Of a stretch of DNA of 64,000 nucleotides, positions 4,287 through 40,894 are shown in pieces. Position 1 is the stretch's first letter. Each line of letters starts with the position of its first letter. The notes beneath the pieces were generated by a model, which worked only from the letters and a program-made list of their open reading frames with translations, made no database searches and had not been told where the DNA came from. Source of the DNA: Armatimonadota bacterium (GTDB lineage Bacteria; Armatimonadota; UBA5829; DTLH01); the NCBI GenBank assembly GCA_029551395.1, contig JAKPFN010000014.1:319-64318 (forward strand), read 5' to 3'. The translations under genes were made by a program, and so were the position numbers.

Positions 4287-5000
4287 ATGCGAGCTTTCGT
4301 TTTGGTGCTGCTTGCGATTCTAGTTTTATTATGTACAGGCTGTGCCGGACGAATAGTCACCGGCAGTGTTGAAAACAGAATAGAGGACCGACTTCCCAGC
4401 CTGATTGGTCCGGCTGAATCTTACGACGTTGAGGTCAAAGGTTCAACAAAACGGATGCTGAGAGGGCAGATTGATAGTGTAGTTATCTTTGGGCGAGAAG
4501 TATGGGTTCTACCCGGACTCCGCCTTGATAGTCTTAATATCAGGATGACGGATGTTGCTGCTAATCCTGATAACGGTACGCTGAAATCTGTAGGCAGTAC
4601 GGAATTCGATGCTGATATCTCTGAGCAATCGCTCAATGAGTATCTGGCCGAGATAAGGATGGACGATCCAAAAGTGGAACTCCTTGATGGAGAACTGATC
4701 GTCCGAACTACTCGAAAGGTGTTAGGGCTGTCTACGAATGTAGTGATGACTGGGACTTTGGTGCCGGAAGGTAAGAAGTTGAACTTCAAACTAAAACGTC
4801 TCAAGGTAGCGGGACTTGGAACCCCTTCCATTGCAACCAAAGTCGTGGAAGATTGGATCAATCCGGTGCTCGACTTGGAATCTACTGACTTTTCACCGGA
4901 GTTGGAGTCGGTGGTCATTTCACCGGGTTCAATACGAGTCACAGGAGAGGCTCATCTGGGTGATGGTGGATCGCCCCGGCGGGCCGATCAGGCAAACTGA
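4287..5000 (+). CDS. Lipoprotein of unknown function (DUF2993/LmeA-like?)
   Basis: Track ORF 4203..5000. The internal Met at 4287 begins a lipoprotein signal peptide 'MRAFVLVLLAILVLLCTGC' with an LCTGC lipobox. The rest is a hydrophilic extracytoplasmic domain. Confidence 0.45.
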   Translation: MRAFVLVLLAILVLLCTGCAGRIVTGSVENRIEDRLPSLIGPAESYDVEVKGSTKRMLRGQIDSVVIFGREVWVLPGLRLDSLNIRMTDVAANPDNGTLKSVGSTEFDADISEQSLNEYLAEIRMDDPKVELLDGELIVRTTRKVLGLSTNVVMTGTLVPEGKKLNFKLKRLKVAGLGTPSIATKVVEDWINPVLDLESTDFSPELESVVISPGSIRVTGEAHLGDGGSPRRADQAN

Positions 5001-5040
5001 AAATGACATTGCGGTAATACCGCTGGATAGGAGTTGAAAA

Positions 5041-5196
5041 ATGTCTACAGTGCTATGGGTAATTATTATAGCCCTGTTCGTGCTGTGGTTGATCGGCCTC
5101 GGTGTGAATTGGGGCAACTGGTTGTGGATTTTGTTTGTTGTTGCAGTTGTCTTGCTGCTTTACAACCTATTCACAGGTAGACGTGTCACAGCTTGA
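5041..5196 (+). CDS. Small membrane protein of the lmo0937 family (51 aa), below the ORF-track length cutoff
   Basis: ATG at 5041 preceded by 'ggagttgaaaa' (SD). It encodes MSTVLWVIIIALFVLWLIGLGVNWGNWLWILFVVAVVLLLYNLFTGRRVTA: two hydrophobic helices and a basic C-terminus, typical of this family. Confidence 0.5.
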   Translation: MSTVLWVIIIALFVLWLIGLGVNWGNWLWILFVVAVVLLLYNLFTGRRVTA

Positions 5197-5212
5197 CGTG
5201 ACTACTAAAATC

Positions 5213-5244
5213 GACAGGCGGGACCGCTTATGGTCCCGCCTGTC
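5213..5244 (+). terminator. Perfect 13-bp stem / 6-nt loop hairpin after the small membrane-protein gene
   Basis: gacaggcgggacc-gcttat-ggtcccgcctgtc. GC-rich stem with no clean U-tract. Its terminator function is inferred from position. Confidence 0.4.
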
Positions 5245-5295
5245 AACATCTATAACATCTACACTTGATTCAGAATAAAATACAGCCTACCCTTG

Positions 5296-5545
5296 GGCTA
5301 AATTTGCAACACCCTCGGGCTAAATTTGCAACACACTCGGGTGCTACACCCATACTCGGGCTAAATTTGCAATTTAGCCCGGAGAAGACAGCCAAGGGAT
5401 TTGCAATCCCGTTTATTGATATTTAAGACAATCATTCAGAATCACAGATTCTTCAGCAATATGTTCGGGAGAGATTGCAAATCCCTCCCGAGACAGGTTT
5501 CTCCCGAGAGATTAATCCCTTCCGAGATAGCTCCCTTCGCTTAAC
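5296..5545. repeat. Complex intergenic repeat element, copy A. It contains TTGCAA-centred palindromes and three tandem units of ~20 bp
   Basis: 'ctcgggctaaatttgcaaca' occurs three times. There are perfect palindromes gggctaaatttgcaatttagccc and gggatttgcaatccc. About 200 bp aligns at ~80% identity to the reverse complement of 13461..13770. Confidence 0.7.
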
Positions 5546-5610
5546 ATCTTCCAGCCTGTAATGGTTTGACCGAGAGACGATAGAATGAGATAATTGCCCT
5601 GGAGGATAAT

Positions 5611-6357
5611 GTGAGCTTCTATGCAATAATCCTTGCTGCCGGCAAGGGCAAAAGAATGAGAGATGAGAACACCCCGGCTGAGTTTCCAAAAGTCCTCAAG
5701 CAGGTAAATGGCCGTCCACTCGTTTCTTACGTAATCGACACCCTAAAGGCATCAGGAATCGACGATATAACTATCATAGTAGGCTTCGGGGCTGATTATG
5801 TTAAGAATGCTCTTGGCAGTGGATTCAGATTTGTTACTCAAAAAGAACAGCTAGGCTCCGGCCATGCCGTCGCCATTGCCAAAGATGCCTTGGCAGACTA
5901 TACCGGACATGTGATTATCATGTGCGGAGATAGCCCACTCTTTAGAAAAGAAACGATATCTGCCCTTAAAAATCAGCATCTAGAATCCGGGGCTGTGATA
6001 ACGCTTGTTTCCGCTGAATTAGCAGACCCCACAGGCTACGGCAGGATAAAACGCCTTCCTTCTGGTGAAATCGCGGGAGTCGTCGAAGAAAAATGCGCGT
6101 CACCTGAAGAAAAGACCATCAAGGAAATCAATGGAGGGGCTTACGCTTTTAATTCTGCATGGCTTTGGTCCAACATTGATAAAATAGAGCGCAATGAAGC
6201 TAACGAGTTTAACCTGACATACCTTGTGAGTGTTGCAGTTTCCCAGGGGCAAAAGGTAGAAGCTGTCCAGGCCGCACCAGAAGAGGTCATGGGTGTCAAC
6301 ACGACGGAAGACCTGCAAAGAGTCGAGGGAATTCTTCTAAAAAGGTCCGGCAGATGA
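5611..6357 (+). CDS. Sugar-phosphate nucleotidyltransferase (GlmU-N-terminal/NTP_transferase-like)
   Basis: 248 aa. N-terminal 'ILAAGKGKRM' (G-x-G-x-R pyrophosphorylase motif). 'GTGYGRI' and Rossmann-like layout. Confidence 0.7.
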   Translation: MSFYAIILAAGKGKRMRDENTPAEFPKVLKQVNGRPLVSYVIDTLKASGIDDITIIVGFGADYVKNALGSGFRFVTQKEQLGSGHAVAIAKDALADYTGHVIIMCGDSPLFRKETISALKNQHLESGAVITLVSAELADPTGYGRIKRLPSGEIAGVVEEKCASPEEKTIKEINGGAYAFNSAWLWSNIDKIERNEANEFNLTYLVSVAVSQGQKVEAVQAAPEEVMGVNTTEDLQRVEGILLKRSGR

Positions 6358-6367
6358 TGGAAATTGC

Positions 6368-7162
6368 TCAAACCTCCAGGTCCTGGTAGTCATCCCGCAG
6401 CCACTTGAGCATTCGCACAAACCCGCCATTTCCGCTCAAGCGGAACTCTACCTCGTCCATCATCGCATGCATCAAACGCAGGCCTAATCCGGCTTCGTTT
6501 AGCAAACTTCCGGAATCATCCGGTGTTGGCTGGCTTATCCCTGGCCCTTCATCCATGACTTCAATGACAAATGCTTTCGGACAGCTCAAGCATCTGAGTA
6601 TAATCTTACTCTTTCCCGGCTCAGGTGAACCATGTTGAAGCGCATTGGCAAGAGCTTCTGTAAGTGCAACCCGGATTTCTGCAATGGACTGATCATCTAT
6701 CTCTGATTCCAATGCAGCATACAGGCCAAGGTCGCGAAGCGAACCAATTACTTCAGCGTCAGCGAGAATAACGGATTCAGTAATCCGCCATTCCTGCCTG
6801 CGAAGATCAGGTTTGTCAGCCTCAGGCTCATCAGACTTCAATGTGAGTACAGACAGCCCCAGCATTGTTGCCAGCCCGCTTACCTGGAGGACTCGCAATA
6901 TTCCCTCATTAGCCCCGGTAACAGCAAACCTTACTCCCAATGCTTGTGCGCGTTTACAAGCAGATGACAGAGTATGCACGGCGCTGGAATCCAGCGATTC
7001 TGCCCTGGAAAGGTCGATGGTAACTTTTGATCCTTTGTCCACAGCACGGGCAAGTACTGACCTGAACTCGCCATTGCAAATAAAATCAATACTGCCCAGC
7101 ACTCGTACAACCTGTTCTTCACCAAGTTCAAGACTGACTATCGGTTTTGGTGCGACTCCCAT
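6368..7162 (-). CDS. Fused anti-sigma-factor antagonist (STAS) / anti-sigma serine kinase (HATPase_c, RsbW-like) protein
   Basis: 264 aa. Residues 1-110 have a STAS fold ('SLDSSAVHTLSSACKRAQALGVRFAVTGA'). The C-terminal half has a GHKL ATPase N-box 'EALANALQHG' and a G-box 'DEGPGI...GLGLRLM'. There is a 14-bp gap to the upstream PP2C gene. Confidence 0.7.
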   Translation of the reverse strand: MGVAPKPIVSLELGEEQVVRVLGSIDFICNGEFRSVLARAVDKGSKVTIDLSRAESLDSSAVHTLSSACKRAQALGVRFAVTGANEGILRVLQVSGLATMLGLSVLTLKSDEPEADKPDLRRQEWRITESVILADAEVIGSLRDLGLYAALESEIDDQSIAEIRVALTEALANALQHGSPEPGKSKIILRCLSCPKAFVIEVMDEGPGISQPTPDDSGSLLNEAGLGLRLMHAMMDEVEFRLSGNGGFVRMLKWLRDDYQDLEV

Positions 7163-7176
7163 CTCCTACCACCTCG

Positions 7177-9933
7177 TTAGCTGGTTCTTGTCAGAGAATT
7201 ATGTACAGCGCTTGGCTCCAATGCAGCCGCAATTATTGCAATATCATCCCTTATTTCTTGATTAGCAAAGTTGGTAGTCTCTTCTATGACCTTTTCAACC
7301 ATTTCACGCGGGCCTACACGTGCATACTTAAAAACAATATCCTGCAGCCCTTCTATAGACAGCATATTACCGGCTTGCTTGGCGTCGATAATGCCATCCG
7401 TATAAAGCAACAGCATATCGCCAGGGTTTAGCATAAGTTCCCTCTCATCATACTCAGAATCCTCCGAGTAACCAACAGGAATACCCGTGCGGTAGAACAT
7501 TATCTGCTGCCTGCCGCCTCTGGTCAGTGCAATCGCTGGCGGATGACCTGCATTTGCATAAGTCATCCATCCTGTATCTGGATCTATCACCGCGCAAAAT
7601 ACCGTTACAACTGCCTTGGATTCAAAATAAGTCATTAGAGCGCGATTTAACAAGTCCAGCACTGCAGCAGGTGAATCTGGCCACTGGAAAAAGAACGCTC
7701 GAATCATATAACGCACCATTGCAGTATGAACGGCTGCCTGAATACCTTTGCCTGTTATATCAGCAACAACAAGAGCTACTTTTTTGTTCGGGAGAGTAAT
7801 CACATCGTAAAGGTCGCCGCCCACACGCGCTTCATCAAGAGCAGGTATATACTTGTGTCCAAACACTAACCTGCCCAACCTGTCAGGAATGACTCCTATC
7901 AGTGTGCTCTGCAGAGTCTCTGCTATCTTATACTCCCTGTGGAACAGCTTCGCATTGGCAATAACCACCGCTGCATGACTCGCAATAGACGCAAGTAAAT
8001 CGATTTCAATAGGCTTGTAATTATGAGGCTGTCTGGTCCATACAGTGATAGTGCCTATTGCTTCTTCACCTACGATTAGAGGCGCAGATATCAGTCCCCG
8101 AAGCTGTTCCCTTTTCACAAGCTCATGCAGACGAATGTCCATCTCACTGCTGATATCCGTCCGATGCACCGGCCGCTTCTCCTGATAAACCACTCCAGAC
8201 CAGCGCTCCCCAGGCTGGATTATTACTTTTTCACAAAACTCCTTGCTGAGATTGTACGCCTCTGCTATTTTCATTCTCCCATCTTTGTCTGCCAAAAATA
8301 TAGCACAGGCATCAACCTCCATTACTTCGCAGGTAGCCCGGACCAGTGAACGCAATACCTGTTTCAAATCCAGCGATGCAGATATCGATTCATCCACTTT
8401 TCTTAGCGAATCCATTACCTTTATTAGCTCTGATGTGCGGCTGTGAGTATAAGCGTTATGAACTGCAATAGCAGCGGTAGAAGCAAATGCACCTAGAAAC
8501 TCTATTTGTTCATGTAACGCCAAATCACCAGCCTGGTCAGTTGGAAAGACTGCCGCAAGCACTCCCACTGGTCTATTGCCGACTACTAATGGCAACATAA
8601 CTGCCGTAAGCCCCTCCAAATCGATATTTGGATACGCAATTGTCGCAGGCACTTCCAGAGACCTAGGAGAATCCAGAGCATGTTCTGCCAGAGGAAGCAT
8701 TGCAGCAACCACACTATCTGTATTTATCTTAGGACTGACAACAGGTTCAAGGGCACCGGTAGTATCGTCCAGGCGGAATATTACTACATATACAGCACCA
8801 AACTGCAGCTTCAATACTTCAGCTATCGACGCTGCAACTCTGCTGATATCAAGGCTTGCTGTAATTGTTCGTGAAACCTCCAGCAAGCTCTGCTGAATAC
8901 GTGTGGTGAACCTCAACGCACGCTGCTGCATCTCAAGACTCTCAGTCATCTGATTGAAACTTTCAGCCAGAGTCTGAAGTTCATCTCTAGTGTTGACATC
9001 CACACGTCGTCTAAGGTCACCAACAGTCACCGCTTCTACTGCATGAGATAACTTCCGAATAGACGAGATTATCCTGTTCCCAATGCCGTAATAAATAGCG
9101 ATTGCAGGCAATACAAGCACCAGCCAAAGTAAATACCAACCTTCTCTGGCAAATGATGGCCCTGGCACTCCTGCCGTACTTATCACTGCAACACGCCAGC
9201 CAAAATCAGGTAAAATCGTAGCCGTGCTATAATCCGATGCATTTCGAAGTTCCACTATCCGGCCTGGCACCAGCATGGAGGCTTTTTCTAAAGCTGCAGT
9301 TGAACTTTTAGATAGATTGTTCCCTGACTTACAGACCAGCTTTCCGTTCCGGTCGATTATTACCGCACTGCGGTTGCCATCCATAACTGATGAAAGCACC
9401 TGACCTATTGCATCTGCTGACACAACTGCATAAATCGTTCCAGTGCCTCCATGGTCAAATGAAACCGGCAGGCTTATGGTAAACACATTCCTCCCTGCCA
9501 GATTATATACAGATGTAACACTCTCATCAGAGCGAAGACTGGATGGAGGTAGTTCTTCCTTTTGCTGACCTGGCTGTAATTCAGGATATCTGTAGTATTT
9601 ATTATTCTCCGTATCTATCAGTCCAGCAGCCAGACATTCGTGGTTATCTGAAACTATTGATTGCAGTAAATTGGAGACCTGCTCAGGATTGTCACTACGT
9701 TGAATCTGACCTAGAGCTTTATAAAGGGAATTGACCAACTCGTCAACAAGAAACTCAACCGAGGTAGCAGCGGCACGAGTTTGTGCAGCCTGCGCACGCG
9801 CGGCAAGGATATCCGCTTGCTTGCAGTAACTTCTGATAATGACATACTGAAGCGCTGCCAGCGGGACAAACGCTGCCAAAAATACAGCCACAAGCCTGCT
9901 TGTGATGCTTTGGAGCCTTGGCCTCAATCCCAT
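7177..9933 (-). CDS. Membrane sensor PP2C-family serine phosphatase (RsbU/SpoIIE-like) with periplasmic sensor, HAMP and two GAF domains
   Basis: 918 aa with two TM segments flanking a ~250-aa extracytoplasmic domain. HAMP ('LRRRVDVNTRDELQTLAESFNQMTESLE'), two GAF-like regions, and a C-terminal PP2C ('DITGKGIQAAV', 'LLLYTDGIIDA'). Confidence 0.85.
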   Translation of the reverse strand: MGLRPRLQSITSRLVAVFLAAFVPLAALQYVIIRSYCKQADILAARAQAAQTRAAATSVEFLVDELVNSLYKALGQIQRSDNPEQVSNLLQSIVSDNHECLAAGLIDTENNKYYRYPELQPGQQKEELPPSSLRSDESVTSVYNLAGRNVFTISLPVSFDHGGTGTIYAVVSADAIGQVLSSVMDGNRSAVIIDRNGKLVCKSGNNLSKSSTAALEKASMLVPGRIVELRNASDYSTATILPDFGWRVAVISTAGVPGPSFAREGWYLLWLVLVLPAIAIYYGIGNRIISSIRKLSHAVEAVTVGDLRRRVDVNTRDELQTLAESFNQMTESLEMQQRALRFTTRIQQSLLEVSRTITASLDISRVAASIAEVLKLQFGAVYVVIFRLDDTTGALEPVVSPKINTDSVVAAMLPLAEHALDSPRSLEVPATIAYPNIDLEGLTAVMLPLVVGNRPVGVLAAVFPTDQAGDLALHEQIEFLGAFASTAAIAVHNAYTHSRTSELIKVMDSLRKVDESISASLDLKQVLRSLVRATCEVMEVDACAIFLADKDGRMKIAEAYNLSKEFCEKVIIQPGERWSGVVYQEKRPVHRTDISSEMDIRLHELVKREQLRGLISAPLIVGEEAIGTITVWTRQPHNYKPIEIDLLASIASHAAVVIANAKLFHREYKIAETLQSTLIGVIPDRLGRLVFGHKYIPALDEARVGGDLYDVITLPNKKVALVVADITGKGIQAAVHTAMVRYMIRAFFFQWPDSPAAVLDLLNRALMTYFESKAVVTVFCAVIDPDTGWMTYANAGHPPAIALTRGGRQQIMFYRTGIPVGYSEDSEYDERELMLNPGDMLLLYTDGIIDAKQAGNMLSIEGLQDIVFKYARVGPREMVEKVIEETTNFANQEIRDDIAIIAAALEPSAVHNSLTRTS

Positions 9934-10300
9934 AGTAGTTCAACTCCTGGACCTTCGAGGCGTCGCAGCTTAGATTGCCACGTAGAGAAGTATAATAGGG
10001 TGTCGCCAGCCTGTCAAGCACTAGTAATTATAAATCTATATATTCATGACTATGACTCTAATGTCTGAAAATGGATTTTTAACTGTTGAATTGATAAGCA
10101 TACTCGTAAATTGTCCTCTGTTTTATTGGTGATATCACTCTGCTGTTGACAGAACCAATGGGTAACATCATCTACAGATTTAATATGCGAGTATGTGTCA
10201 CGATGTTGTCAAAACTGTAGGGCTGTGATAAAGTAGCAGAGTGCCTCTAAAATAGAAGAGAGAATAATTTGCAAGCCGCTGGCACCTAGGAGGATAGTCC

Positions 10301-11788
10301 ATGCAATTTAATGTTCTGCAGAAGTCATTGACTGAAGCTGAGTGTGATGTACTTGTTGTCAATTTGTTTGAAGGCGTCAAGCAGCCTGGTGGTGGAACCG
10401 GAGCTGTAGATAAAGCAGTCGGTGGAGCTATAACTCAACTAATCGAACGTGAAAATTTCGAAGGTAAACTGGGCCAGACTGTAGACCTCACTCCTGCCTC
10501 TGGAGTCAAAGCGCCTAAAATCTTAGTAGTAGGACTTGGCAAGCAAGAAGAATTCAATGCTAACAAAGTCCGAGAAGCATCTTCGGCTGCTGCCAGAAAA
10601 GCAAAAGAATTCTCCGCCAAAAAAGTAGCCACAATCCTGCATGGCGCTGGAACTGGCGGCATTGAACCATCAGCAGCAGCTCGCGCACTAGTTGAAGGTA
10701 CGATTCTTGGCACTTATGAGTATACAAAACATAAAACCAAGGATGTCAAACCTAACCCGCTGGAGCAGATTGACATCATAGAGTTGGACGCTGCTAAAAT
10801 CGATGCCATTAAACAGGGAATTTCTCGTGGACAGATAACAGCAGAAGCAACAAATTTCGCCCGAGACCTGACCAATGAACCAGCCAATATCCTGACACCT
10901 ACGCTTATGGCCGAACAAGCTGCCTCTATAGCCAAAGAAGGTGGGCTTGAGTGCAGAATTATCGGCCAGGAAGAGATGAAGCAGTTAGGCATGAACCTGA
11001 TTCTCGCCGTAGCTAAAGGAAGCATGCAGGAACCGAAGTTCATTATCTTAAAATATACTGCCCCTGGAGCTTCCAAGACCGTTGCGTTTGTTGGAAAAGG
11101 TATCACCTTCGACTCTGGAGGATTGAACCTGAAACAGGGCGAGGGTATGGCGGATATGAAAGACGACATGTCTGGTGCGGGAGTCGTTCTTGCAACTATG
11201 AGTGCCGTTGCAAAACTCAAACCAAAAGTCAATGTGCTTGGCATCATGCCTGCAACTGAGAATATGATTGGCGGAAACGCTACTCATCCAGGCGACGTCA
11301 TTCGTGGATTCTCCGGCAAGACTGTCGAAATCAACAATACAGATGCTGAAGGCAGACTGATACTCGTTGACGGTGTCGCTTTTGCAGAAAAAGAAGGCGC
11401 TGACGAAATTATCGACATTGCAACACTTACCGGAGCCTGTGTAGTTGCACTTGGCAGGCAAATGGCAGGAATTTTAGGCACTGACCAGAGTATGATTGAC
11501 CGCATTATCAGCGCTGGAGAAGAAAGCGGTGAGAAATTCTGGCAGCTTCCGCTTCATGAAGGATATCAGGACACTCTTAAGAGCGATGTAGCTGACATGA
11601 AGAACTCTCCTGGTCATGCCGGCACAATCACGGCCGCTCTTTTCATCAAAGAGCATATCGAAATGAATAACTGGGTACATCTGGACATTGCTGGCCCGTG
11701 CTTATCAGACAAAGAGACACCGATTGGCCCCAAGGGCGGCACTGGATTCGGCGTTGGCACACTCGTCAACTACCTCATGAACCAGTAA
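10301..11788 (+). CDS. pepA: Leucyl aminopeptidase (M17 family)
   Basis: 495 aa with the M17 signature 'NTDAEGRL' plus 'GKGITFDSGG'. SD 'ggagga' upstream. Confidence 0.9.
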   Translation: MQFNVLQKSLTEAECDVLVVNLFEGVKQPGGGTGAVDKAVGGAITQLIERENFEGKLGQTVDLTPASGVKAPKILVVGLGKQEEFNANKVREASSAAARKAKEFSAKKVATILHGAGTGGIEPSAAARALVEGTILGTYEYTKHKTKDVKPNPLEQIDIIELDAAKIDAIKQGISRGQITAEATNFARDLTNEPANILTPTLMAEQAASIAKEGGLECRIIGQEEMKQLGMNLILAVAKGSMQEPKFIILKYTAPGASKTVAFVGKGITFDSGGLNLKQGEGMADMKDDMSGAGVVLATMSAVAKLKPKVNVLGIMPATENMIGGNATHPGDVIRGFSGKTVEINNTDAEGRLILVDGVAFAEKEGADEIIDIATLTGACVVALGRQMAGILGTDQSMIDRIISAGEESGEKFWQLPLHEGYQDTLKSDVADMKNSPGHAGTITAALFIKEHIEMNNWVHLDIAGPCLSDKETPIGPKGGTGFGVGTLVNYLMNQ

Positions 11789-11941
11789 CATCATAACTTA
11801 CTGACCATACAAATAGCCCGGTAGTCCAGTCAGGCTGCCGGGCTTATTTGTTCCTCTAACATCCTCCTTCTTAGCCTCAAACATTCCTACTTACGGGTAA
11901 GTACAGTATGTAGAATAATCTTTCGAATAACGAGGCTGCAG

Positions 11942-12397
11942 ATGTCTATCAGGAATAAATGGAGTTGGGTAGCAGGGCTGGCAACTGCAGGTGTAATAGA
12001 TTCGCTATATCTCCTGCTGTTTCAAACAAAAAAGATAGACCGTATAATCTGTCCCATCTTTGGAGAAGGATGTGAACGGGTATCAAGACATCCTATAGCG
12101 TACCCAAGAGGGATACCGGATGCTATTTTTGGAGTAGCAGGATATACCGCGGCTGCTGCTATAGCGCTTGCAATTCCTCGTACAACCGGGAATACTCAAA
12201 AGACCCTTGCTGCAGCCGCTGCAGGAGGTTCGGTACTGGCTGCTGGGCTTAGCGCGTTCCTTACCTATGCCCAGCCAACCAAAACCGGAGCCTGGTGTTT
12301 TTGGTGCCTGGTGTCGGCTATCATTTCGACAACCATGGCTCCAATAGCAATATCAGGGTCAATAGAAATCCTGCGAAATTCAAACAAACAGGAGTAG
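11942..12397 (+). CDS. Vitamin K epoxide reductase (VKOR)-family membrane thiol oxidoreductase
   Basis: 151 aa with four predicted TM segments. It has the loop Cys pair 'CPIFGEGC' and the TM CXXC active-site motif 'CFWC'. Confidence 0.55.
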   Translation: MSIRNKWSWVAGLATAGVIDSLYLLLFQTKKIDRIICPIFGEGCERVSRHPIAYPRGIPDAIFGVAGYTAAAAIALAIPRTTGNTQKTLAAAAAGGSVLAAGLSAFLTYAQPTKTGAWCFWCLVSAIISTTMAPIAISGSIEILRNSNKQE

Positions 12398-12402
12398 GAA
12401 CT

Positions 12403-13092
12403 ATGTCACAGTTTCCTGAATACGGAGTCCCAGAATCGAAAGTCTCAGATAATTTAATTATTGGTGCTGTAAGAAACGCTCTGGGTGAGAGTGAGGAAGT
12501 CGATACAAGCGATATCGTAGTCGATGCCGCAGACGGCATTATCAGGCTGACCGGTGTTGTCAGCACTTTTTACGAAAAGAGAAAAGCCGGACGCCTCGCA
12601 CGGGCAGCAGAGGGTGTCAAAGGAGTTGATAACTCCCTTGTTGTAGTGCCAGACAAACAACCAACAGACCAGAAGATTTTTGATGCTATAGATAAAGCTC
12701 TTGGTAATTTCCCTGAGGGAAGACCTGCAAGAATTGGAGTGCGTATGGTCGAATCCGGAGTAGCTTATATTTCCGGCAAGGCATCAAATGCCCAGGAAGC
12801 ATGGAATGCTATCGATATAGCCTCCAAAATCCCCGGTGTAAAAGATATTGTAGATGAGATAGATATTGCGCCAGGTGAACCGATAGATGATGTAGAAATC
12901 AAAAATCTGGTAATAGATGCTCTCTCGGAGGATTCAAGAGTCGACCCATTTGAGATTGAGGTAAATGTTCGCAATGCAGAAGTATATCTGGAAGGAGAAG
13001 TAGAAGACGAGGAGGCTATAAGAGCCGCTGGAGAACTGGCAAGCACCGCAGCAGGCGTCAAACGTGTCATCAATCATATTCGCATCAGATAA
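12403..13092 (+). CDS. BON-domain protein (OsmY-like, three BON repeats)
   Basis: Track ORF 12295..13092. The start is reassigned to the ATG at 12403, after SD 'caggagtagg'. There are three repeats of the BON pattern ('...V.V..G.V.L.G.V.S...'). Confidence 0.65.
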   Translation: MSQFPEYGVPESKVSDNLIIGAVRNALGESEEVDTSDIVVDAADGIIRLTGVVSTFYEKRKAGRLARAAEGVKGVDNSLVVVPDKQPTDQKIFDAIDKALGNFPEGRPARIGVRMVESGVAYISGKASNAQEAWNAIDIASKIPGVKDIVDEIDIAPGEPIDDVEIKNLVIDALSEDSRVDPFEIEVNVRNAEVYLEGEVEDEEAIRAAGELASTAAGVKRVINHIRIR

Positions 13093-13460
13093 ACCGGCAC
13101 TGCAACATTGTATTTGAATCTGAAGAAAGGTAGAAATGGGATAAAGATTACTGTCATGCTTTATCCCTTTCCATCTTTCCAACGTTTTAGGTCTCTAGCA
13201 ACAAATTGTTCTACCAGACATCTGATGGATTTAGGATGAATTCATTAACTAAATGCTGCCCCTAACTGGAGCGCAAACCTTTACTATGCCCCTCACCCTC
13301 CGCCCGGAGTACATCCTGCGGCCAAAAGCATTACTATGAGTAGTATAATAGCTTGTATTATTCGATAAATCACACTTACTCACCTCCTCTGCTTAGGAAA
13401 CCCTATTACTTATTCCGATTTTTCCACAGTTTATGGCTATCTTCCTTTTAGTAATATCTG

Positions 13461-13770
13461 ATAGCCTCAGACCTTTATGATTCATCTCTCGGGAAGGCTC
13501 TCACACGGGAGGGATCTTTCTCGGGAGGGCACTCTCTCGGGAGGGCACTCTCTCGGGAGGGCACTCTCTCGGGAGGGCACTCTCTCGGGAGGGCACTCTC
13601 TCGGGAGGGATTTGCAATCCCTCCCGGACATATTGCTGAGGAATCTGTGATTCCGGGTTATGGTCTGAAGCACCAATGACCGGGATTGCAAATCTCAGCT
13701 ATTCTTCCGGGCTAAATTGCAAATTTAGCCCGAGGGTATTGCCTCAGACCTTTATGATTCTACTTGACCG
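13461..13770. repeat. Complex intergenic repeat element, copy B. It is inverted relative to copy A and includes about six tandem copies of a 16-bp unit at ~13517..13612
   Basis: 'ctctcgggagggcact' in tandem. Palindromes gggatttgcaatccc and gggctaaattgcaaatttagccc. The reverse complement aligns to 5296..5545 (e.g. 'cagcaatatgtccgggagggattgcaaatccc' against 'cagcaatatgttcgggagagattgcaaatccc'). Confidence 0.7.
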
Positions 13771-40750: not shown

Positions 40751-40894
40751 GAGTGAGTGGAGAAAGTCGAGTGAGTCGAGAAAGTCGAAGAGAATGCCAA
40801 TTGCTGATTGTTGATTGCCAGGTAAACCCGCAACCATCAAACGGCAATCTGCCTTCCCTCGGCCCTCTCGACTCCCCCCTCTCGCTCTGCCTCC

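Follow-up and report, generated by a model that had tools for sequence, protein, structure and literature searches.

Two inverted hairpin repeats beside an 8-kb gene block in an Armatimonadota genome are best explained as copies of a dispersed REP family with a cognate RAYT transposase

The locus

A contig of an Armatimonadota bacterium (GenBank assembly GCA_029551395.1, contig JAKPFN010000014.1, positions 319 to 64,318) carries two homologous, non-coding, hairpin-rich repeats in inverted orientation on either side of an 8-kb block of genes. The whole 64,000-nucleotide stretch that was analysed is called the window, and the repeats, which carry unlike tandem arrays, are called copy A (5289-5540) and copy B (13484-13737). 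Two pairs of arms match once one copy is inverted, 5398-5511 with 13581-13694 at 83% over 114 nt and 5355-5383 with 13706-13734 at 100% over 29 nt. Within the window these sequences stand alone: their signature motifs occur only at A and B, in a number reached by none of 100 shuffles, and an nhmmer profile search likewise returns A and B only. A scan of the whole window against Rfam 15 at gathering thresholds gave no match, and a tRNA scan of the window found none. The original prediction, made from the sequence alone, had described a homologous inverted pair around the block and short palindromes in both copies, and both are present as described.

Between the copies, Pfam recognizes an NTP-transferase, a STAS-anti-sigma-kinase fusion, a HAMP-GAF-PP2C phosphatase, PepA, VKOR and a BON protein. 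MreB, LmeA and a 51-aa open reading frame (ORF) flank the block on the left, and HisI and HisF on the right. The same search applied to all genes from 2.9 to 14.9 kb detects no recombinase and no transposase, so that the predicted gene list and the lack of a transposase in the block are both borne out. A classical composite transposon had also been rejected at the outset, soundly so: A and B are non-coding, the window does not contain the transposase gene introduced below, and a 23-nt direct repeat (13461-13483 and 13738-13760) brackets copy B alone and not the block.

Each copy is organized around a core of about 138 nt with four local hairpins, H1 to H4, as defined in an alignment (A2) of 22 copies of the family to which A and B belong. 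The outer hairpins, H1 and H4, are mutually inverted and both fit the 27-nt template CTCGGG-N4-ATTTGCAAT-N4-CCCG, which occurs exactly four times in the window, as one inverted pair per copy with 81-84 nt between its members. Across the family, H1 has an 11-bp stem with a TGC loop and a stem middle that is usually CTAA/TTAG; H2 reads GGGATT-TGC-AATCCC and H3 GGAATC-ACA-GATTCC; and H4 is an 11-bp stem in the inverse orientation with a middle that is usually AGGG/CCCT. The features of the two copies are as follows, with repeat units from Tandem Repeats Finder (TRF).

Copy A
5289..5354, plus strand: left (5') tandem array; TRF reports a 22-nt unit repeated 2.4 times at 5289-5341
5355..5381, plus strand: H1, CTCGGGCTAAATTTGCAATTTAGCCCG, 11-bp stem with TGC loop; template match
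5396..5410, plus strand: H2, GGGATT-TGC-AATCCC; helix 2 is paired in 98.5% of the alignment
5438..5452, plus strand: H3, AGAATC-ACA-GATTCT; its outer pair is A-T, compensated, where the family has G-C; from alignment A2
5466..5492, minus strand: H4, template CTCGGGAGGGATTTGCAATCTCTCCCG on the minus strand, with one G.T pair
5483..5540, plus strand: right array of degenerate CCCTCCCGAG-type units; inverted matches, following the family rule

Copy B
13461..13483, plus strand: left direct repeat, ATAGCCTCAGACCTTTATGATTC; the repeat is unique to the B site
13485..13609, plus strand: tandem array, 16-nt unit TCTCTCGGGAGGGCAC repeated 7.8 times (TRF); each unit joins the 5' half stem of H4 to a linker
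13600..13626, plus strand: H4, CTCGGGAGGGATTTGCAATCCCTCCCG, perfect stem; template match
13640..13654, minus strand: H3, GGAATC-ACA-GATTCC; profile match
13682..13696, minus strand: H2, GAGATTTGCAATCCC, one mismatch; from alignment A2
13708..13734, minus strand: H1, identical to that of A; TAC-C precedes it on its own strand
13738..13760, plus strand: right direct repeat, ATTGCCTCAGACCTTTATGATTC; abuts the hisI stop codon

The units of the left array of A contain (T)AC(A/C)C-TCGGGCTAAATTTGCAA, that is, a tag followed by the 5' half of H1, and on the minus strand the units of its right array correspond to the 5' half-stem of H4. Each copy was predicted to have expanded a different tandem unit, three copies of a roughly 20-nt unit in A and about six of a 16-nt unit in B; the difference between the copies is real, while the unit counts were slightly off.

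A family dispersed over intergenic sites

A degenerate hairpin template with its N4 blocks left free was scanned once against a metagenome collection, and the resulting counts are lower bounds. The scan yielded at least 182 hairpins in at least 117 metagenome contigs, at no fewer than 89 distinct sites (loci and contigs are cited below by L numbers); the 27-mer of the H1 of copy A alone occurs 83 times in these loci. Most matches come from anaerobic-digester samples (ERZ795045/46/60 and Ga0116165-168), which contain contigs matching the window at 100% as well, and one sample alone contributes at least 25 contigs with 43 hairpins. The family contigs have the same base composition as the window (48.5% and 48.7% GC, respectively). 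Among 58 adjacent hairpin pairs, 36 are in the plus-minus arrangement, mostly with a spacer of 81-84 nt, making the inverted doublet the predominant form. No viral contig matched the template. An 18-mer, CTCGGGCTAAATTTGCAA, searched against species-representative genomes, returned seven singletons in unrelated taxa, which is the chance level, and the repeats of this organism are not in that collection.

The hairpins are mostly extragenic. Only 39 of the 182 lie inside open frames of at least 120 codons, though such frames make up 85% of the bases. Among the matches listed, the intergenic regions with elements fall into convergent, tandem and divergent types in comparable shares, with no strong bias in gene orientation (the gene calls are crude) and no bias of the elements toward gene 3' ends. 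A specific relation of the repeats to the 8-kb block is thereby contradicted, as dispersed intergenic copies with no strong orientation bias are the pattern that the original prediction had named beforehand as the mark of a generic family.

Nor are A and B each other's closest relatives. Identity between their cores is 85%, and across the family (22 copies) it averages 81%, with a median of 83%; they rank 7th and 11th of 21 in each other's lists of relatives, and the closest relative of B, at 96%, is L091, at an unrelated site. The two copies are thus not a special pair.

Many contigs end within the repeats. The ends of L001, L002, L006-L010, L012-L020, L148-L156, L179 and L180 fall inside elements, typically in H1 or in the arrays. 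Short-read assemblies of the organism, from many studies, break at the elements, so that metagenome-assembled genomes (MAGs) are fragmented at every copy and the repeats are under-represented in them.

Hairpins kept as structures

The apex ATTTGCAAT and the CGGG/CCCG foot of the outer hairpins are invariant, and the middle of the stem varies. At the positions left free in the template, N4 and N4' are complementary in 128 of 144 cells, with 36 distinct variants and 23 different left blocks. In alignment A2 the four-hairpin model pairs 99.1% of cells, and ten pairs have changed on both sides. None of 500 shuffles attains this pairing, which drops to 19-63% when the partners are slid against each other. 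H2 and H3 were entirely absent from the search pattern; helix 1 is paired in 99.6% of cells, and three of the six pairs of helix 3 have changed on both sides. Folded as single-stranded DNA, either strand of either copy scores a z of about -6.5. A long-range pairing of H2 with H4, proposed by minimum-free-energy folds, was rejected, as H2 does not follow when the stem of H4 changes. The stems covary, so structure and not sequence is what is conserved, and from this pattern of substitutions the hairpins appear to be under selection as structures.

A transposase gene inside one copy

A motif screen of all retrieved DNA found one gene combining an HUH motif (HAH) with a C-terminal YLHNNPIRKGLV, in L057 and L071 and also in L145. 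Its product passes NCBIfam model NF047646, the equivalog model for the REP-associated tyrosine transposase (RAYT; REP, repetitive extragenic palindrome), with 86 bits against a cutoff of 80 (E = 2e-24). The match of Pfam Y1_Tnp is weak, and JGI names the homologs 'REP element-mobilizing transposase RayT'. Searched as a single sequence against the PDB, the protein finds no match and does not reach E. coli TnpA-REP; a profile of its clade was needed, and this retrieves 4ER8 (E. coli TnpA-REP) at 7e-11, ahead of the ISDra2 TnpA at 5e-3. Residues H60, H62 and Y142 are invariant.

The position of the gene ties it to the repeats. It lies between def and fmt, inside a family doublet and exactly in the H2-H3 spacer, with H1 and H2 on one side and H3 and an H4-type hairpin with its array on the other. 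When the 561-nt ORF is deleted, 139 nt remain, and these are colinear from end to end with the gene-less doublets (92.8 bits, E = 2e-30). On this evidence, A and B look like miniature, gene-less forms of a unit that carries the RAYT gene. A tblastn search of all retrieved DNA finds the gene at the def-fmt locus only, and there is a single accession for each MAG. The window proteins are listed at NCBI as 'MAG TPA ... [Armatimonadota bacterium]' in the accession series HOK, HOM, HOP and HPP, and the RAYT proteins (HOM71613.1 and HPP74585.1, 'transposase [Armatimonadota bacterium]') belong to the same series, which places both in the same genome bins.

A second organism repeats the association. 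In L146, a RAYT 63% identical to the first is flanked by CGGGTCAGATTTGCAATCTGACCCG and its inverse, each beside an H3-type mini-hairpin. Contigs from other environments, with a different GC content, carry other stem middles (TGTG, CGCG and others). Together these observations indicate that the template travels with the RAYT clade and that the stem middle is lineage-specific.

A side observation concerns L145, where def is split at 4646-6187 into two ORFs of 117 and 41 aa and the RAYT is called at only 125 aa. Sequencing or assembly frameshifts could account for this, as could decay in that strain.

Transcription context and possible roles for the host

Copy A fills the gap between two transcription units, with a terminator upstream and a promoter-like site downstream. 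The terminator, at 5214-5245, is a hairpin belonging to the 51-aa ORF, and the other site is listed here.

5566..5594, plus strand: promoter-like site of the NTP-transferase gene, TTGACC-17-TG-GATAAT; consensus match only

Copy B lies downstream of hisI, between convergent gene ends. Neither copy has a T-run after H1 or H4, and a terminator-like match exists only for the short H2 of A (5396-5410, with a GTTTATTGAT tail).

One of the predicted options was that the TTGCAA-centred palindromes are reiterated operators through which a regulator co-regulates the flanking genes. Some protein presumably does read these bases, given the invariant ATTTGCAAT apex and CGGG/CCCG foot, and A is situated just upstream of the promoter-like site. 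Yet the stem middle changes by compensatory pairs, which retain the hairpin and not the duplex sequence, and the sites are spread over unrelated intergenic regions, beside unrelated genes and in all orientations, including convergent ends such as that at B. Moreover, the same hairpins flank RAYT in two organisms, which makes RAYT the obvious reader of the invariant bases. The operator reading is accordingly unsupported, and we regard it as highly improbable.

The hairpins might instead be RNA or DNA structures useful to the host, such as bidirectional terminators, stabilizers of mRNA 3' ends or sites for nucleoid proteins, with RAYT irrelevant today. They are stable on both strands, B stands between convergent 3' ends, a weak excess of G.T over A.C mismatches may mark one strand, and roles of this type are documented for E. 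coli REPs and their mosaics (PMC3733652, PMC3479197). This explanation accounts neither for a RAYT gene placed exactly in the spacer of a copy nor for lineage-specific stems that track RAYT relatives, and it fits poorly with the lack of 3'-end bias and of T-runs at H1 and H4, where the short H2 of A alone is terminator-like. As the whole explanation it is very unlikely; as a secondary effect, a structural role for the host is compatible with the elements being copies of a RAYT-associated family.

Arrays, tags and flanking repeats

Half-stem arrays are a property of the family and not of A and B alone. Arrays with a TRF period of 10-39 nt adjoin the hairpins in 54 of 118 loci, and their unit joins the 5' half of the neighbouring stem to a linker particular to that locus. 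The asymmetry is pronounced: per 120 nt there are 0.90 CTCGGG motifs 5' of the hairpins, 0.10 on the 3' side and 0.05 in the background, a 17-fold 5' enrichment. With such arrays family-wide, the expansion of a different unit in each copy is a family rule. The array of copy B is the largest seen in the family.

These arrays are hypervariable between strains. When near-identical orthologous contigs from different samples are compared, all 14 indels of at least 10 nt fall inside elements, and 13 of the 14 comprise whole units. For instance, the B array has 8 units in the window and 12 in L166, and L016 carries a 32-nt (two-unit) deletion in it.

Short tags were sought at the hairpin feet. The 5' flank of H1 reads C-T-A-C-(A/C), with A in 97% of copies at position -3; CTAC is the reverse complement of GTAG, in the mirror position. 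A CGTC or GTAG tetranucleotide at the 5' foot of the palindromes is not conserved in the family.

Flanking direct repeats are nearly absent, as 28 of 30 doublets have none above chance. The exceptions are B, with 20 nt exact or 23 nt with one mismatch, and L143, with 19 nt (TTTTTTGCGCCGACGCCCA) in copies at about 1730 and 2100; in both cases the repeats enclose arrays. These bear on the possibility that the elements are classical miniature inverted-repeat transposable elements (MITEs), deletion derivatives of a DDE-type insertion sequence (IS) with terminal inverted repeats (TIRs) and target-site duplications of fixed length. Overall dyad symmetry, a size of 140-300 bp, an intergenic location and the absence of coding capacity all suit such a reading, as do the repeats at B and L143. 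The 28 copies without a flanking duplication do not, and neither do the 19-23 nt of the two that are present. No DDE transposase was noticed in the contigs examined, which were screened only for RAYT, and the only transposase carrying these ends is of the Y1/HUH type. Classical MITEs are consequently an extremely improbable explanation.

A second kind of repeat was noted nearby. Tandem heptamers (GAGTGAC, GAGTGAT, GAGTAAT and similar) directly adjoin several elements, at L004 2100-2185 (equivalent to L079 at about 1000-1075), at the element flanks in L112, L117 and L144, and at L146 9760-9890. Judged by their sequence, they look like an unrelated short-repeat type co-located with the REP family. 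In the window itself, an 18-nt tandem repeat, GAGTGAGTCGAGAAAGTC, repeated 2.1 times with an internal 9-nt period at 40751-40788, is reminiscent of these heptamers.

Synteny and rearrangement of the 8-kb block

The gene order around the block differs among relatives. In two Armatimonadota MAGs (L157 and L159, BON 61% identical), VKOR and BON are followed by the convergent small ORF (84% identical) and LmeA, and the spacer measures 71-88 nt and has one terminator and no family hairpins. An NTP-transferase in L159 was rejected as an ortholog, being a 25%-identical paralog. A closer relative, L161, has mreC, mreB, LmeA, the small ORF and two extra genes, followed by BON, VKOR, pepA, PP2C, STAS-kinase, NTP-transferase, miaA, hfq, dapF and an aminotransferase gene. 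Its identities with the window are 87% for MreB, 73% for PepA, 66% for NTP-transferase and VKOR, 60% for BON, 53% for LmeA and PP2C, and 52% for STAS-kinase. Relative to the mreB-LmeA anchor, the six-gene block of L161 is inverted with respect to the window, again with no family hairpins.

Strains nearly identical to the window are polymorphic at copy A. Contigs L004/L137 and L079, from two assemblies, are 99.6-100% identical to it from 5314 into the NTP-transferase gene; on the outer side of A they continue into an ANTAR regulator, a GAF-HWE kinase, miaA, hfq, dapF and the aminotransferase gene and not into LmeA. The miaA-hfq-dapF neighbourhood is the arrangement of L161 and is taken as ancestral. 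The junction thus falls at 5313/5314, inside the left array of A and at a unit boundary. The window-type junction, from the small ORF into A, is also found in ERZ795046 and in one NCBI MAG, so that both configurations occur within one sample series; LmeA-side contigs of L079-type strains end before or inside the element.

The other side of the block has a different history. Next to BON lies the following feature.

13293..13373, minus strand: truncated lipoprotein ORF of 26 codons, with a strong Shine-Dalgarno sequence, a signal peptide and the lipobox LAAGC (LLAAGC), and a stop five residues later

This ORF is co-directional with hisI and present in both strain types and in all strains examined; it is probably what remains of a gene that an old rearrangement beside BON cut short. 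The truncated gene points to an older breakpoint at about 13165-13293, 190-320 nt from B and with no REP remnant. The sequence that follows BON in the window, comprising the remnant, the 23-nt repeat and the B array, recurs in sample ERZ795060 (99.6%). Because this junction is shared with a strain that has the ancestral miaA flank at A, the two junctions arose separately. At least two separate events are involved, an older one on the BON side that is species-wide and a recent, strain-polymorphic one at the left array of A.

These data allow an assessment of whether the block was inverted by recombination between A and B, as a programmed segment or through a one-off homologous event; the original prediction had offered invertible-segment boundaries as one option. 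The idea has a partial basis: the copies are in inverted orientation and match perfectly over stretches of 29 and 21 nt, the six-gene block is inverted relative to mreB-LmeA-small ORF in three relatives, the two doublets of the window occupy exactly the two boundary intergenic regions (p of about 0.002 under uniform placement among 30 regions), and the left array of A is a strain-polymorphic junction. A simple crossover between A and B, suggested by the inverted block of the relatives, was nonetheless rejected. The junction of BON, remnant and B is identical in the strain with the ancestral flank at A. Both 23-nt repeats of B are intact, which indicates that its two flanks were once a single uninterrupted spacer on the hisI side; the repeats would have been parted by a crossover within B. 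The right breakpoint falls outside B and cuts a lipoprotein gene short. On the right, the flanking genes are hisI and hisF where a simple inversion predicts miaA; miaA, hfq and dapF are absent from the window. Furthermore, no recombinase is encoded in the block or next to it, neither copy is the nearest relative of the other, and the opposite orientation, with junctions of LmeA to BON or of hisI to NTP-transferase, appears in none of the junction-spanning contigs from more than 10 samples (contigs, not reads). Inversion between A and B is thus very unlikely, and the 8-kb block is not a mobile or switchable unit.

Two neighbouring genes deserve mention in their own right. The hydrophobic 51-aa ORF (5041-5196, plus strand) keeps 84% identity along its entire length in Armatimonadota MAGs where LmeA reaches only about 49%. 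It always directly follows LmeA and has no precomputed Pfam hit in the contig tables; its sequence suggests a strongly conserved small membrane protein. The HAMP-GAF-PP2C phosphatase and the fused STAS/anti-sigma-kinase (HATPase_c_2), at 6368-9933 on the minus strand, recur as a pair in L161 (7122-10771) and L163 (7235-10744). The pair is an unusual fused partner-switching module kept across Armatimonadota.

Comparison with known systems

The reference systems for RAYTs and for REPINs, the REP doublets associated with them, also known as REPtrons, are those of Pseudomonas fluorescens SBW25 and E. coli TnpA-REP (Nunvar 2010; Bertels & Rainey 2011, PMC3116915; Ton-Hoang 2012; Messing 2012, PMC3479197). 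Among RAYTs, Bertels et al. report an association with REPINs for groups 2 and 3 alone (PMC5581495; bioRxiv 10.1101/2021.07.10.451892). The present family resembles these systems in its short, extragenic, high-copy palindromes, in the predominance of an inverted doublet with a fixed spacer, in an apparently single RAYT gene (HUH and catalytic Tyr, with 4ER8 as best solved relative) flanked by the same palindromes, in the lack of a regular target duplication and in the clustering of copies around the RAYT gene. It differs in several respects. The host is an armatimonadote, a phylum whose name is absent from PMC3733652 (PMC5581495 was not searched for it); there is no 5' GTAG; the outer REPs have different, locally folding stems; two extra inner hairpins make up a four-hairpin module; the RAYT ORF lies precisely in the doublet spacer; and a hypervariable 5' half-stem array adjoins the hairpins. 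The literature covers whole REPs or REPINs clustered in tandem, REPs with a GTAG or CGTC tag, and RAYT-like genes flanked by TIRs (PMC3116915, PMC3733652), and half-stem arrays are not described in either of these two papers.

Other known elements share part of this architecture. Like the bacterial interspersed mosaic elements (BIMEs) of E. coli, the family is a mosaic of two REP types (H1 with its CTAA stem, H4 with its AGGG stem) in opposite orientation, with conserved internal linker motifs and a repeat number that varies between loci and strains. BIME-2, in contrast, amplifies whole Y-Z pairs, and here only half-stems and a linker (10-39 nt) are amplified. The TIRtrons or TIRYTs (Di Nocera et al. 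2013, PMC3733652) likewise combine RAYT-like genes with longer, partly self-complementary ('double palindromic') inverted repeats lacking GTAG, in moderately abundant families of dimers or clusters. In a comparison made with their description and not their sequence, the present RAYT differs by passing the NCBI RAYT equivalog model, and the GGGGWSAS motif of many TIRs is not evident in the element consensus, for which no formal search was made. Finally, the IS200/IS605 elements and their miniature derivatives, the palindrome-associated transposable elements (PATEs), share the HUH/Y1 transposase, the subterminal hairpin at each end, the lack of a target duplication and the existence of gene-less derivatives, whereas the protein described here is nearer to TnpA-REP (7e-11) than to ISDra2 TnpA (5e-3). 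An apparently single-copy transposase together with an abundant gene-less form is the pattern of a RAYT and not of an IS.

Interpretation

Taken together, A and B are best explained as independent, non-autonomous copies of a REP/REPIN-type family with a cognate RAYT, and their inverted placement as incidental; we give this explanation as a whole a probability of roughly 85%. Of the options originally put forward, that of a MITE/REP-like dispersed repeat family is the one that held, through the many contigs and sites occupied and the RAYT gene inside one copy.

In the mechanism we propose, RAYT would recognize the hairpins in single-stranded DNA, cut and rejoin at their feet, and so spread gene-less copies to intergenic sites with no regular target duplication. 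The 5' half-stem arrays might then gain and lose units locally, either through slippage or as RAYT repeatedly nicks and rejoins the DNA. The dispersed elements could also serve as substrates for ectopic recombination between REPs, with the left array of A as the junction of a recent, strain-polymorphic rearrangement. A bolder and rather doubtful variant is that the arrays record successive rounds of nicking and rejoining by RAYT at the hairpin foot, an undescribed 'stuttering' activity, and do not arise by simple slippage.

Several observations weigh against this explanation. No presence/absence polymorphism of a whole element was found among strains, and empty orthologous sites were seen in distant relatives only. 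The canonical 5' GTAG tag is absent, CTAC precedes H1 only, and H4 has no tag. The stems of H1 and H4 differ and fold locally, so that no single long REPIN hairpin forms. The 19-23-nt flanking repeats of B and L143 are not predicted by an HUH/Y1 mechanism. The link between RAYT and the genome of the window is one of metagenome binning and identical repeats and not of a closed genome. As to the rearrangement at A, L079 and L004 could in principle be repeat-induced mis-assemblies, although a mis-join would have had to arrive at the ancestral synteny by coincidence (at most 1 in 89), and to do so in two assemblies.

Significance

A striking inverted pair around a block of signalling and housekeeping genes is thus resolved as copies of a REP family and not as a switch, a transposon or an operator array, at the strength given above. 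A complete REP-plus-RAYT system is newly documented in a poorly studied, uncultured phylum, the Armatimonadota. The points of most interest are the arrays, which are strain markers, and the strain-level junction, where one element coincides with a structural difference between near-identical strains. If the stuttering activity were real, every REP border would be a fast-evolving locus with a variable number of tandem repeats, and the arrays, together with the dispersed 138-nt homologies, would drive strain-level chromosome rearrangements in this Armatimonadota lineage. Active REPIN-RAYT biology would then reach well beyond the Proteobacteria, with a recognition code other than GTAG.

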